Assembly: GCF_054482595.1 (NCBI RefSeq)
Contig: NZ_CM137008.1
Reading direction: 5' to 3' (one strand)
DNA length: 64,000 bases
Made by a program: the position numbers and the translations under genes. Shown piece after piece: positions 32,110 to 38,300 of this stretch. Below the pieces are notes generated by a model that was given only the letters and a program-made list of their open reading frames with translations, was not told the DNA's origin and did not search any database. Numbering within the stretch: the first letter of the stretch is position 1; every line of letters begins with the position of its first letter.

Positions 32110-32125
32110 TGGCACGAACCCTGCA
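32110..32125 (+). promoter_or_regulatory. Sigma-54 (-24/-12) promoter upstream of astC: TGGCAC-gaacc-CTGCA
   Basis: The sequence matches the TGGCAC-N5-TTGCA consensus with one mismatch and lies about 70 bp upstream of the astC ATG. Established knowledge: the ast operon has an NtrC/sigma-54 promoter. Confidence 0.7.
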
Positions 32126-32197
32126 ATCTACATTTACAGCGCAAACATTACTTATTATTAACATATAAATAACGAATTATTTACTGTAGAGGTCGCT

Positions 32198-33418
32198 ATG
32201 TCTCAGCCAATTACGCGTGAAAACTTTGATGAATGGATGATACCTGTTTACGCTCCGGCACCGTTTATACCGGTACGTGGCGAAGGTTCGCGCTTGTGGG
32301 ATCAGCAGGGGAAAGAGTATATCGACTTCGCGGGTGGCATTGCGGTGAACGCGCTGGGCCATGCGCATCCGGAACTGCGTGAGGCGCTGAACGAACAGGC
32401 GAGTAAGTTCTGGCATACCGGCAACGGTTACACCAACGAGCCGGTACTGCGACTGGCGAAAAAATTGATCGACGCCACGTTTGCCGATCGCGTCTTCTTT
32501 TGTAACTCCGGTGCGGAAGCCAATGAAGCGGCGCTAAAACTGGCGCGTAAATTCGCTCACGACCGCTACGGCAGCCATAAGAGCGGTATCGTGGCGTTTA
32601 AAAATGCGTTTCATGGTCGCACGCTGTTTACTGTTAGTGCGGGTGGGCAGCCAGCCTATTCACAGGATTTTGCGCCACTGCCACCAGATATCCGTCATGC
32701 TGCATATAACGATATTAACTCTGCCAGCGCGCTGATTGACGACTCTACCTGTGCGGTGATTGTCGAACCCATCTAGGGGGAAGGCGGTGTGGTGCCAGCC
32801 AGCAACGCATTTTTACAAGGTCTGCGTGAATTGTGTGATCGCCACAATGCGCTGTTGATTTTTGATGAAGTACAAACCGGCGTCGGGCGCACCGGGGAAC
32901 TGTATGCCTATATGCACTACGGCGTGACGCCTGATCTGTTAACTACCGCCAAAGCGCTGGGCGGCGGTTTCCCGGTCGGTGCGTTGTTAGCAACCGAAGA
33001 GTGCGCCAGCGTGATGACCGTTGGCACTCATGGCACCACCTATGGCGGCAATCCGCTGGCCTCGGCGGTGGCAGGCAAAGTGCTGGAGCTCATCAATACG
33101 CCAGAGATGCTTAACGGGGTTAAGCAACGTCACGACTGGTTTGTTGAGCGTCTTAATACCATTAATCACCGCTACGGTTTGTTCAGTGAAGTTCGCGGCT
33201 TAGGTCTTTTGATTGGCTGTGTACTGAATGCCGATTACGCCGGGCAAGCGAAACAGATCTCTCAGGAAGCGGCGAAAGCAGGCGTGATGGTACTGATTGC
33301 GGGTGGCAACGTGGTGCGTTTTGCGCCTGCGCTCAATGTCAGCGAAGAAGAGGTGACGACCGGACTGGATCGCTTTGCTGCGGCCTGTGAACGCTTTGTG
33401 AGCGGAGGTTCATCATGA
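32198..33418 (+). pseudogene. astC: Succinylornithine transaminase gene astC interrupted by an in-frame amber codon (TAG at 32774-32776)
   Basis: Two same-frame ORFs (192 aa and 209 aa) flank a TAG; the context VEPI*GEGGV corresponds to the conserved class-III aminotransferase motif VEPIQGEGG, so CAG (Gln) has become TAG. Total length 1221 bp equals the expected 406 codons. Confidence 0.85.
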
Positions 33419-34449
33419 TGGTCATCCGTCCCGTTGAACGCTCAGATGTCTCGGCGCTGATGCAGCTTGCCAGCAAAACGGGCGGCGGCCTGACGTCGCT
33501 TCCCGCCAATGAAGCCACGCTTTCGGCGCGTATCGAAAGGGCAATCAAAACCTGGCAAGGCGAACTGCCCAAAAGTGAGCAGGGCTATGTGTTCGTGCTG
33601 GAAGATAGCGAGACAGGCACCGTGGCGGGGATTTGTGCCATTGAGGTGGCAGTTGGGCTGAACGATCCCTGGTACAACTATCGCGTCGGCACGCTGGTTC
33701 ACGCTTCGAAAGAGCTGAATGTCTATAACGCGCTGCCGACGCTGTTTCTCAGTAACGATCACACCGGCAGCAGCGAGCTGTGCACGCTGTTTCTCGACCC
33801 GGACTGGCGCAAAGAGGGCAACGGCTATTTGCTGTCGAAATCGCGCTTTATGTTTATGGCGGCTTTTCGCGACAAGTTTAATGACAAAGTGGTTGCTGAA
33901 ATGCGCGGGGTGATTGACGAACACGGCTATTCACCGTTCTGGCAAAGCCTCGGTAAACGCTTCTTTTCGATGGATTTTAGCCGCGCCGATTTTCTCTGCG
34001 GCACCGGGCAAAAGGCATTTATTGCAGAACTGATGCCGAAACATCCGATCTATACGCACTTTTTATCCCAGGAAGCCCAGGACGTCATCGGTCAGGTACA
34101 TCCGCAAACCGCGCCTGCCCGCGCGGTGCTGGAGAAAGAAGGTTTTCGTTACCGCAACTATATCGACATCTTCGACGGTGGGCCGACGCTTGAGTGTGAC
34201 ATCGACCGCGTGCGCGCCATCCGTAAAAGTCGGCTGGTGGAAGTGGCAGAAGGGCAGCCTGCGCAGGGCGATTTTCCGGCCTGCCTGGTCGCCAATGAAA
34301 ATTATCACCATTTCCGCGTGGTGCTGGTGCGTACCGATCCGGCAACCGAGCGTTTGATTTTAACCGCCGCACAACTCGATGCCCTCAAATGCCACGCAGG
34401 GGATCGCGTTCGTCTGGTGCGCCTGTGCGCAGAGGAGAAAACAGTATGA
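33415..34449 (+). CDS. astA: Arginine N-succinyltransferase
   Basis: 344-aa ORF ([19 protein letters not shown]...); ATGA overlap with the astC stop. Confidence 0.92.
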
Positions 34450-35958: not shown

Positions 35959-37298
35959 ACGCCTGGGAAGTTAATTTCGACGGGCTGGTAGGGCTGACGC
36001 ATCATTACGCGGGCCTGTCGTTTGGTAATGAAGCCTCTACCCGTCACCGTTTTCAGGTGTCTAACCCGCGACTGGCGGCAAAACAGGGCTTACTGAAAAT
36101 GAAAGCCCTTGCCGATGCGGGATTCCCCCAGGCCGTGATCCCGCCGCACGAGCGTCCGTTTATTCCGGTGTTGCGTCAGTTGGGATTCAGTGGTAGCGAT
36201 GAGCAGGTACTGGAAAAAGTTGCACGCCAGGCACCGCACTGGCTTTCCAGCGTCAGCTCCGCTTCGCCAATGTGGGTAGCCAATGCGGCAACGATCGCGC
36301 CATCTGCCGATACGCTGGATGGCAAAGTGCATCTCACCGTTGCCAACCTGAACAATAAATTTCACCGTTCGCTGGAAGCGCCCGTCACTGAATCGCTGTT
36401 AAAAGCGATTTTTAACGACGAAGAGAAATTTAGTGTCCATTCGGCGTTGCCGCAGGTAGCCTTGCTCGATGATGAGGGGGCGGCAAACCACAATCGTCTC
36501 GGCGGTCATTACGGTGAACCGGGTATGCAACTTTTTGTCTACGGGCGAGAAGAAGGCAATGATACCCGGCCTTCCCGTTATCCGGCGCGACAGACTCGCG
36601 AAGCCAGCGAGGCGGTGGCAAGGCTGAATCAGGTGAATCCCCAACAGGTGATTTTCGCCCAGCAAAACCCGGACGTTATCGACCAGGGCGTTTTTCATAA
36701 TGACGTGATTGCCGTGAGTAACCGCCAGGTGCTGTTTTGTCATCAACAGGCGTTCGCTCGACAGGCGCAGTTACTGGCAAACCTGCGTGCTCGGGTCAAT
36801 AGCTTTATGGCAATAGAGGTGCCCACGGCGCAGGTTTCCGTGTCGGATGCGGTGTCTACATATCTGTTCAACAGCCAACTGTTGAGCCGCGATGATGGTT
36901 CCATGATGTTGGTGCTGCCACAGGAGTGTCGGGAACACGCCGGAGTATGGTGTTATCTCAATGAACTCCTTGCCGCTGACAACCCGATCAGCGAACTAAA
37001 AGTCTTTGATTTACGTGAAAGCATGGCGAATGGCGGTGGCCCGGCGTGCCTGCGGTTGCGGGTGGTATTGACACAAGAAGAACGCCGGGCGGTGAATCCG
37101 GCGGTGATGATGAACGATACCTTGTTTAATGCGCTCAATGACTGGGTGGATCGTTACTACCGCGATCGTCTTACTGCTGCCGATCTGGCCGACCCGCAAT
37201 TGCTGCGCGAAGGGCGGGAAGCACTGGATGTATTGAGCCAATTACTGAATCTCGGTTCGGTTTATCCGTTCCAGCGCGAGGGAGGGGGCAATGGATAA
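35955..37298 (+). CDS. astB: N-succinylarginine dihydrolase
   Basis: 447-aa ORF, ATGA-coupled to the astD stop; recognised as AstB. Confidence 0.9.
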
Positions 37299-38259
37299 TT
37301 TTCTTGCTCTGACCTTAACGAGTAAAAAACCGGTTATCACCGAGCGAGAAATCAACGGTGTTCGCTGGCGCTGGCTGGGCGATGGTGTGCTGGAACTGAC
37401 GCCATTAACGCCACCGCAAGGCGCACTGGTGATTTCAGCGGGGATCCACGGTAATGAAACGGCTCCGGTGGAAATGCTGGACGCGTTGCTTGGCGCGATA
37501 TCTCACGGCGAGATCCCGTTACGTTGGCGGTTGCTGGTGATCCTCGGGAATCCTCCTGCGCTGAAGCAAGGGAAACGTTATTGCCATAGCGATATGAACC
37601 GAATGTTTGGCGGTCGTTGGCAGCTGTTTGCTGAAAGCGGAGAAACCTGTCGGGCGCGCGAACTGGAACAGTGCCTGGAAGATTTTTATGACCAGGGCAA
37701 AGAATCTGTGCGCTGGCACCTTGATCTACATACCGCAATTCGTGGCTCCTTGCATCCGCAGTTCGGTGTATTACCGCAACGCGACATTCCCTGGGACGAG
37801 AAATTTCTGACGTGGCTGGGTGCGGCGGGTCTGGAGGCACTGGTGTTCCATCAGGAGCCTGGTGGTACGTTTACCCATTTCAGCGCCAGACATTTTGGCG
37901 CGCTGGCCTGTACGCTGGAACTCGGCAAAGCGTTGCCCTTTGGGCAAAACGATCTTCGCCAGTTTGCAGTAACTGCCAGCGCAATTGCTGCGCTGCTATC
38001 TGGTGAGAGTGTTGGTATCGTGAGAACGCCGCCGCTCCGTTATCGGGTGGTTTCGCAAATTACTCGCCACTCGCCGTCCTTCGAAATGCATATGGCAAGT
38101 GACACGCTGAATTTTATGCCGTTTAAGAAAGGAACGTTGCTGGCGCAGGACGGTGAGGAACGTTTTACCGTAACCCATGATGTAGAGTATGTGTTATTCC
38201 CTAATCCGTTGGTAGCGTTGGGATTACGCGCGGGATTAATGCTCGAAAAAATAAGCTAA
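37291..38259 (+). CDS. astE: Succinylglutamate desuccinylase
   Basis: 322-aa ORF of the AstE/AspA zinc-carboxypeptidase-like family; overlaps the astB end by 8 bp. Confidence 0.9.
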
Positions 38260-38263
38260 TACT

Positions 38264-38300
38264 TACCCGCAGAAATCATTCTGCGGGTATTAAGTTACTT
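38264..38300 (+). terminator. Hairpin terminator after astE (tacccgcagaa / ttctgcgggta)
   Basis: 11-bp perfect stem immediately after the astE stop, followed by a moderately T-rich tract. Confidence 0.5.

Follow-up and report, generated by a model that had tools for sequence, protein, structure and literature searches.

The arginine succinyltransferase (AST) operon in the 64-kb window (the whole stretch of 64,000 nucleotides that we analysed) carries two unrelated lesions, a nonsense codon in astC and a 34-bp tandem duplication in astD. In our reading, the operon has decayed recently, step by step and for the most part neutrally, within a natural E. coli subclone, an explanation to which we give a probability of roughly two in three. 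The first-pass annotation had named both lesions, and comparison at single-base level with the nearest complete genomes, XH990, W619 and THO-010, confirms them. The features on which the argument rests are as follows.

32110..32125, + strand: TGGCACGAACCCTGCA, resembling a sigma-54 promoter, 73-88 bp upstream of the astC ATG
32198..33418, + strand: astC, succinylornithine transaminase, pseudogene (open reading frames, relatives, profile match)
32773..32777, + strand: former Dcm site, CCAGG now CTAGG, with TAG at 32774-32776 arising from C>T at 32774
33415..34449, + strand: astA, arginine N-succinyltransferase, intact (full-length NF007770 equivalog, 734 bits, cut-off 521)
34446..35958, + strand: astD, succinylglutamate-semialdehyde dehydrogenase, pseudogene (frameshift, 374 aa against 492; early stop at 35568-35570)
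35512..35519, again 35546-35553 and 35580-35587, + strand: 8-bp direct repeat CGTTGCTG (sequence context)
35513..35546, + strand: 34-bp tandem duplication, copy 1, same letters as copy 2
35547..35580, + strand: 34-bp tandem duplication, copy 2, the added one, lacking in all 5,426 complete E. coli genomes
35955..37298, + strand: astB, N-succinylarginine dihydrolase, intact (full-length TIGR03241 equivalog, 805 bits, cut-off 538)
37291..38259, + strand: astE, succinylglutamate desuccinylase, intact (full-length TIGR03242 equivalog, 482 bits, cut-off 306)

RefSeq annotation of near-identical relatives, mapped onto the window, places the genes in the order astC-astA-astD-astB-astE on a single strand, with xthA and spy at either side. 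The astCADBE operon and its AST pathway were reportedly described in E. coli by Schneider, Kiupakis and Reitzer in 1998 and by Kiupakis and Reitzer in 2002. The window keeps its five genes in their order, along with the overlapping stop/start junctions and a sigma-54-type motif, and 5,425 complete E. coli genomes match the region at 95-100% identity, but two of the five genes are broken here. ATGA overlaps join astC to astA, astA to astD and astD to astB, and astB overlaps astE by 8 nt (ATGGATAA). Tested against curated families for full length and a score above the cut-off, AstA, AstB and AstE pass and AstC and AstD fail; the locus is an ast operon by descent that does not encode the complete pathway.

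Upstream of astC, TGGCACGAACCCTGCA departs from the sigma-54 consensus TGGCAC-N5-TTGCA by one mismatch and is base-identical in the relatives, and sigma-54-like matches across the window number no more than chance predicts. Its placement fits the published NtrC/sigma-54 control of astCADBE, as relayed in PMC4066584, which cites Kiupakis & Reitzer 2002, and we treat it as a candidate promoter; in K-12, NtrC is reported to bind upstream of astC (PMC4066584). A scan of the operon for consensus promoters and terminators returned nothing beyond chance. The DNA of astA, astB and astE shows no differences from XH990, so that the preservation of these genes, the ATGA junctions and the promoter-like element noted at first sight is borne out. 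It had also been taken to be informative, which it is not: relatives with a working operon differ from the whole 7.5-kb region at the two lesions and at no other base. Because of this identity the lesions are recent, and the rest of the operon is evidently pristine only through too little elapsed time.

In astC, a C>T change at 32774 turns CAG into TAG (Q193*; ATCCAGGGG in the ancestral sequence, ATCTAGGGG in the window) and leaves the reading frame in two, with 192 aa encoded at 32198-32776 and 209 aa at 32789-33418. The two fragments match NF009047 over profile positions 1-192 and 199-405 with 417 and 397 bits, each against a cut-off of 630. The 192-aa product lacks Lys252, the lysine that binds PLP in AstC (PMC3590144). 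Ancestrally the codons read ATC|CAG|GGG, and the change struck the inner C of the CCAGG that they contain. Such CCAGG amber hotspots are textbook material, in the account of Coulondre et al. 1978 given in PMC12606429. As in the lacI ambers attributed to deamination of 5-methylcytosine at Dcm (CCWGG) sites (Coulondre, Miller, Farabaugh & Gilbert 1978), the inner C of CCAGG has become T and an in-frame CAG has become TAG; those mutants came from a laboratory mutant hunt, whereas here the change sits in a catabolic gene of natural isolates. Codon 193 is the only in-frame Dcm amber target within astC; the window holds 77 such targets, 15 of them in ast.

The astD lesion is a perfect tandem duplication of the 34-bp unit GTTGCTGACGCCGGGGATCATTGAAATGACAGGC; the relatives are shorter by 34 bp. 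The frame is shifted after about codon 367, and the resulting fragments of 374 and 136 aa cover profile positions 1-373 and 357-486 of NF006992. Ancestral astD already contained two copies of CGTTGCTG, 34 bp apart, which is the period of the duplication, and this pair would have been the substrate for slipped-strand duplication. Duplications and deletions of short homology between short direct repeats, of the Streisinger slippage type, are said to populate the lacI spectra of Farabaugh et al. from 1978. The astD event has nothing unusual about it in this respect; here too the copies are perfect and head to tail, and the unit length equals the spacing of the 8-bp repeat. Tandem duplications of this type can revert precisely, and on its own such a lesion is a reversible knockout.

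Sequencing or assembly error, which the first-pass annotation had listed as a possible refutation, is by now hardly credible as the source of one or both lesions. Dcm sites are, a priori, prone to error in some long-read base-callers, and we found no evidence of error here; short-read assemblies made independently and drawn from NCBI, ENA and Logan show the same alleles, as does one metagenome contig, which refutes the rival, and because these independent assemblies carry them the lesions are not artefacts of this record. We counted 43 contigs with the 192-aa AstC product and 14 with the 374-aa AstD product. One assembly (L010, GCA_029471405.1) matches the window without a difference over 20.6 kb, both lesions included, and another (L013) is identical as far as a contig break inside the duplication. 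Among 5,426 complete E. coli genomes, neither the 61-mer carrying the astC T (no exact match) nor the 40-mer spanning the astD duplication junction was found. This distribution means that the lesions are inherited in a naturally circulating E. coli subclone. Laboratory passage, offered at first as one possible setting, is unlikely because the alleles are common to about 40 independently sequenced assemblies and a metagenome contig. About 39 of the 44 contigs with the YdjH S62R marker also carry the astC amber allele. The presence of this allele in nearly all subclone assemblies is also compatible with a selective advantage or with hitch-hiking.

Comparison with close relatives, which had been suggested as a way to time the two mutations, dates both as recent and also points to their order. 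One assembly (L008, GCA_958334905.1) has the duplication and otherwise equals the window over 21 kb, except for wild-type astC and wild-type chbC. Because it combines the duplication with an intact astC, the astD lesion is most likely the older of the two, an order that turns on this one sequenced intermediate and presumes that the rare duplication arose once. The two amber-bearing contigs of the window's background that were inspected, L010 and L013, are both compatible with presence of the duplication; 18 more contigs were grouped with them automatically.

We propose a model in which replication slippage between the CGTTGCTG copies, 34 bp apart, first produced the astD duplication. The frameshift cost the aldehyde dehydrogenase its final ~125 residues, the EEVFGP motif among them, and would have left the pathway dead. 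In a descendant, the inner C of the astC CCAGG then became T, probably through deamination of 5-methylcytosine, of which the change bears the signature; this supposes that Dcm is active in the strain, its gene lying outside the window. Gln193 thereby became an amber codon, with loss of the PLP-binding Lys252. Since a broken astD would have ended selection on astC and left it without protection, a mutation at this hotspot could persist. Translational coupling is probably also weakened by the two lesions, which may exert polar effects on the genes downstream, and the subclone is predicted to be unable to draw nitrogen from arginine through AST.

Elsewhere in the window the picture is one of integrity. 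None of the 57 other complete genes is disrupted, as had been claimed, and 54 of them are protein-identical to XH990; the remaining three differ by S62R (ydjH), loss of Thr71 (chbC) and H96Y (tcyP). If the ast lesions were the sole knockouts in a ~5-Mb genome, two hits in one operon would lie far above chance for independent neutral events. Within the window, the clustering is weak: for the seven lineage-private mutations in 64 kb the probability of at least two falling in the 6-kb operon is 0.14, and for two random gene knockouts of the window to share an operon it is about 0.06, as estimated from gene lengths. Because both hits fell at mutation-prone sites, the coincidence is largely explained by mutation bias. 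The first-pass annotation had argued for relaxed or positive selection rather than random decay, and that argument stands in part: relaxed constraint is the most economical account, but the clustering used to exclude chance is weak and both sites are prone to mutate.

It could be supposed that the genome is decaying generally, or under an unusual mutational regime (a mutator, or stress-induced indels), with ast struck twice by chance among many pseudogenes. Indels make up three of the seven private mutations (a 15-bp duplication, the 34-bp duplication and a 3-bp deletion) as against none of eight in the three relatives (Fisher p = 0.077), and the lineage's coding changes are mainly non-synonymous, both of which lean towards such a regime. 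We nevertheless consider it very unlikely. The four private SNPs in 64 kb lie within the range of one to five seen in the relatives, and for that reason there is no sign of hypermutation; the other 57 genes are intact. Neither the 15-bp duplication nor the chbC deletion was present in any other assembly checked, and the ChbC variant is nowhere on record, so both appear terminal and private to this genome, whereas the ast lesions lie on older, shared branches.

Nonsense alleles of astC are not confined to this subclone. The identical Q193* TAG is present in two unrelated lineages with intact astD (L011 and L012), whose backgrounds diverge by 2.5-2.8% from the window and from each other. The complete genomes nearest to each differ from it by ~1-2 nt over 19-20 kb and have C at the site. 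Q193* is, from this pattern, of independent origin in at least three lineages. Spread of the allele by recombination was considered and rejected, as the haplotypes flanking the site diverge within about 70-110 bp of it. A 189-aa AstC fragment (P0003) represents a real E190* allele that arose independently in a fourth lineage, and a 162-aa fragment (P0004), considered as a further null allele, was rejected as a contig-end artefact. This brings astC nonsense alleles to at least four lineages (Q193* three times, E190* once), and loss of astC is, by the same token, tolerated in lineages other than this one.

Recurrence of this kind invites an adaptive interpretation, in which AST loss is favoured in the subclone's niche, whether through plentiful ammonia or because induction wastes succinyl-CoA, and positive selection drove both lesions. 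The window's only two knockouts share one operon, astC nonsense alleles occur in at least four lineages, and the amber-bearing sublineage makes up most of the sampled subclone members, all of which would suit it. We regard it as unlikely all the same. One knockout had already abolished the pathway, and a second adds no loss of function; the recurrence of Q193* falls at a Dcm hotspot and is explained without selection; and any dispensable gene is expected to show recurrent null alleles among millions of assemblies. Neither allele occurs in any of the 5,426 complete genomes, and the window-level statistics are weak (P 0.06-0.14). A literature search on ast pseudogenes or on ast loss in experimental evolution returned nothing relevant.

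A related possibility, and a slightly less likely one, is that the second hit was compensatory. After loss of AstD, inducing the operon would turn arginine into the reactive aldehyde N-succinylglutamate semialdehyde, a dead end, and the astC stop would have been selected as a block on this flux. Such a model needs astD to fail first and astC second, which is the inferred order; the enzyme that produces the aldehyde is the astC product, and astC is promoter-proximal, the first gene of the operon, where a stop is probably polar. Against this, the literature search gave nothing relevant on toxicity of succinylglutamate semialdehyde, and the astC amber allele accompanies intact astD in other lineages, where a prior astD defect was not needed. 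The block might also leak, since ArgD and AstC are interchangeable (PMC3590144), and the hotspot alone is sufficient. It is tempting to speculate further that the amber is non-neutral, as a selected intragenic-pathway suppressor halting either the semialdehyde or a futile drain of succinyl-CoA, that AST loss is repeatedly favoured in some E. coli niches, and that the Dcm site at codon 193 is a ready-made off switch; we think this improbable.

Stepwise and largely neutral decay thus remains our preferred explanation. Pathway-level build-up of pseudogenes, or 'domino' decay, is familiar in enterobacteria whose niche has narrowed recently, among them Shigella and host-restricted Salmonella. In the AST operon too a single dispensable pathway has taken multiple hits, the second probably after function was lost, but the window shows no sign that insertion sequences have expanded or that pseudogenes are widespread, as they are in those organisms, its other 57 genes being intact. 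The operon offers a clean natural case where public assemblies allow one to read which of two knockouts in a single pathway came first, with both mutational mechanisms recognisable by their sequence context. It follows for E. coli phylogenetics that astC codon 193 is a homoplasic site, unfit as a marker. The case is also a caution, since a doubly hit operon and the same nonsense mutation arising in parallel mimic selection, and the apparent selection can here be accounted for by mutation hotspots together with the constraint lost after the first hit.

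The window is an E. coli chromosome segment running from yeaD/gapA to infC; in the ast region, 5,425 of 5,426 complete E. coli genomes in RefSeq match it at 95-100% identity. About 13 genomes (including XH990, W619, THO-010, TUM18780 and O157:H16 Santai) make up the small clade nearest to it; they are near-identical to the window across all 64 kb, and our gene map was taken from their RefSeq annotation. Two genes of the arginine succinyltransferase (AST) operon, astCADBE, are broken:

32110-32125, putative sigma-54-type promoter motif, TGGCACGAACCCTGCA, by motif match
32198-33418, astC, interrupted by TAG at 32774-32776
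34446-35958, astD, frameshifted by a perfect 34-bp tandem duplication
35513-35546 and 35547-35580, the two copies of that duplication

Sequence comparison reduces the astC amber, Q193*, to a single C>T at 32774, where the relatives have CAG, and the duplication shifts the astD frame such that the protein stops at 374 aa instead of 492. The first-pass annotation had described these two lesions beside preserved astA, astB, astE, gene junctions and promoter motif, and it was right in every particular. DNA identity to XH990 is complete in astA, astB and astE, and their full-length products exceed NCBIfam equivalog cut-offs; AstC and AstD match their families as fragments only; and three junctions keep their overlapping ATGA stop/start, while astB still overlaps astE by 8 nt. 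The ast operon is under NtrC control, which the position of the putative sigma-54-type motif fits (PMC4066584). The locus is an astCADBE operon by descent, yet it does not encode a complete pathway. Each of the 57 other complete genes in the window is undisrupted. THO-010 has a private astC missense of its own at window 33386, with a different protein accession (WP_200930455.1), and four further private SNPs within the 64 kb.

The lesions are real and not sequencing or assembly errors, as they recur in independent public assemblies. Looked up as exact sequences, both truncated products recur: 43 contigs encode the 192-aa AstC fragment and 14 encode the 374-aa AstD product, with one 5.2-Mb chromosome and one metagenome contig among the carriers. 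Assembly GCA_029471405.1 has both lesions in 20.6 kb identical to the window, and a Logan assembly (SRR21970424) is identical until its contig breaks within the duplication, as expected of a k=31 assembler. No complete E. coli genome of the 5,426 carries either allele: the T-carrying 61-mer of astC had no exact match among them, and the astD duplication junction had no match. In the ENA metagenome ERZ15849865, a contig with the astD duplication matches the window base for base until its end, where 10 mismatches in the last ~70 bp (window 37933-37999) probably reflect a chimeric or strain-mixed end. Laboratory passage, an origin suggested at first pass, is unlikely given about 40 independent assemblies.

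Compared with three relatives, the window lineage has seven private mutations in 64 kb:

1538-1567, perfect 15-bp tandem duplication (CTCGCCTCACTCTTC twice), gapA-msrB intergenic
3679, synonymous G>T in ydjL
7450, S62R in ydjH
43211, in-frame 3-bp (CAA) deletion in chbC (43000-44355), losing Thr71
52790, H96Y in tcyP
ast operon, astC Q193* and the astD duplication

YdjH S62R occurs in 44 contigs, about the same set as the astC amber, and marks a natural subclone; TcyP H96Y occurs in 2 contigs only. The deletion product of chbC, which encodes the chitobiose PTS IIC component, is 451 aa long and has no public assembly record, and the 15-bp duplication and ydjL change are absent from a second subclone member (L014) and from XH990, W619 and THO-010. 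Within the assemblies checked, these three changes appear private to the window genome. From the 15-bp duplication it is 131 bp downstream to the start codon of gapA, so placed that the duplication could influence the gapA or msrB promoter region.

Comparison with close relatives also suggests an order for the ast lesions. Over 21 kb, assembly GCA_958334905.1 departs from the window at only two positions, one in astC, where the C is wild-type, and one in chbC, where the wild-type CAA is still present; the astD duplication is nevertheless there. Of the astC-amber contigs of the same background, two were inspected and both are compatible with the duplication; 18 further contigs were grouped with them. 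On the simplest history drawn from these genomes, the astC amber would have arisen after the astD duplication.

Both mutation types are textbook. The astC change lies in ATC CAG GGG, which contains CCAGG, a Dcm site whose inner C has become T. Deamination of 5-methylcytosine at Dcm sites is a classic amber hotspot (Coulondre et al. 1978, as summarised in PMC12606429), and Q193* would, by its sequence context, be such a change. Besides codon 193, astC has no in-frame Dcm amber target; the operon as a whole holds 15 of the 77 in window genes. The same Q193* (CCAGG>CTAGG) occurs in two unrelated lineages, L011 (SRR12779499) and L012 (ERR712771), locus 10577-10579, both with intact astD; they diverge by 2.5-2.8% from the window and from one another, and their nearest complete genomes differ from them by ~1-2 nt per 19-20 kb. 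Because the haplotypes flanking Q193 diverge within ~70-110 bp of the site, the stops arose independently and codon 193 is homoplasic; a transferred patch is ruled out by the same differences. In astD, an 8-bp direct repeat, CGTTGCTG, bounds the duplication, and its two ancestral copies, 34 bp apart, would be the expected slippage substrate. Comparable repeat pairs number 77 in the window, ten of them within ast. We found no paper describing these astC or astD alleles, which are a new instance of an already known type of event.

Does the double hit require selection? The probability that at least two of seven private mutations fall within the 6-kb operon in the 64-kb window is 0.14, and, from gene lengths, two random window gene knockouts would share one operon with P~0.06. 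The intact promoter and neighbours are uninformative: the two lesions aside, the region does not differ from that of relatives whose operon works. Private SNPs (4, against 1-5 in the relatives) give no sign of hypermutation. Indels make up 3/7 private changes (both tandem duplications plus the 3-bp deletion) versus 0/8 in the three close relatives, an excess that hints at an unusual mutation spectrum without reaching significance (Fisher p = 0.077).

A fourth lineage, ~97% identical to the window, has another, independent astC nonsense allele, E190* (GAA>TAA; L016 and L017, locus 7568-7570), three codons upstream of Q193, with the remaining operon intact; 11 SNPs separate its two carriers over 14.6 kb. 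With three Q193* origins and one E190* allele, natural strains evidently tolerate the loss of astC, although nulls in any dispensable gene are expected across millions of assemblies. A first hit would relax constraint and a hotspot would then supply the second, which is sufficient to account for both lesions. The inferred order would also agree with two less probable readings, positive selection for AST loss and an astC stop that compensates against a toxic aldehyde. Of the selective regimes proposed at first pass, relaxed constraint is the one we favour.

The 192-aa AstC lacks Lys252, the PLP lysine (PMC3590144), and the truncated AstD lacks ~125 C-terminal residues, the EEVFGP motif among them. 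Conversion of succinylornithine to succinylglutamate would thereby be blocked at two consecutive steps. Arginine reportedly serves as a nitrogen source through AST (Schneider et al. 1998), and this use should be lost. Premature termination should also uncouple downstream genes translationally and may be polar on them. Beyond the amber, 32777-32791 reads GGGGGAAGG, then an in-frame GTG at 32789, where gene callers begin a C-terminal AstC ORF of 208-209 aa; a restart there could reduce polarity on astA. Any AstA and AstB that the cell still makes could go on freeing two ammonia per arginine. As ArgD and AstC are reported to be interchangeable (PMC3590144), some leakiness of the pathway is conceivable. 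The duplication by itself could revert precisely; with the amber on top of it, loss of the pathway would be effectively irreversible.
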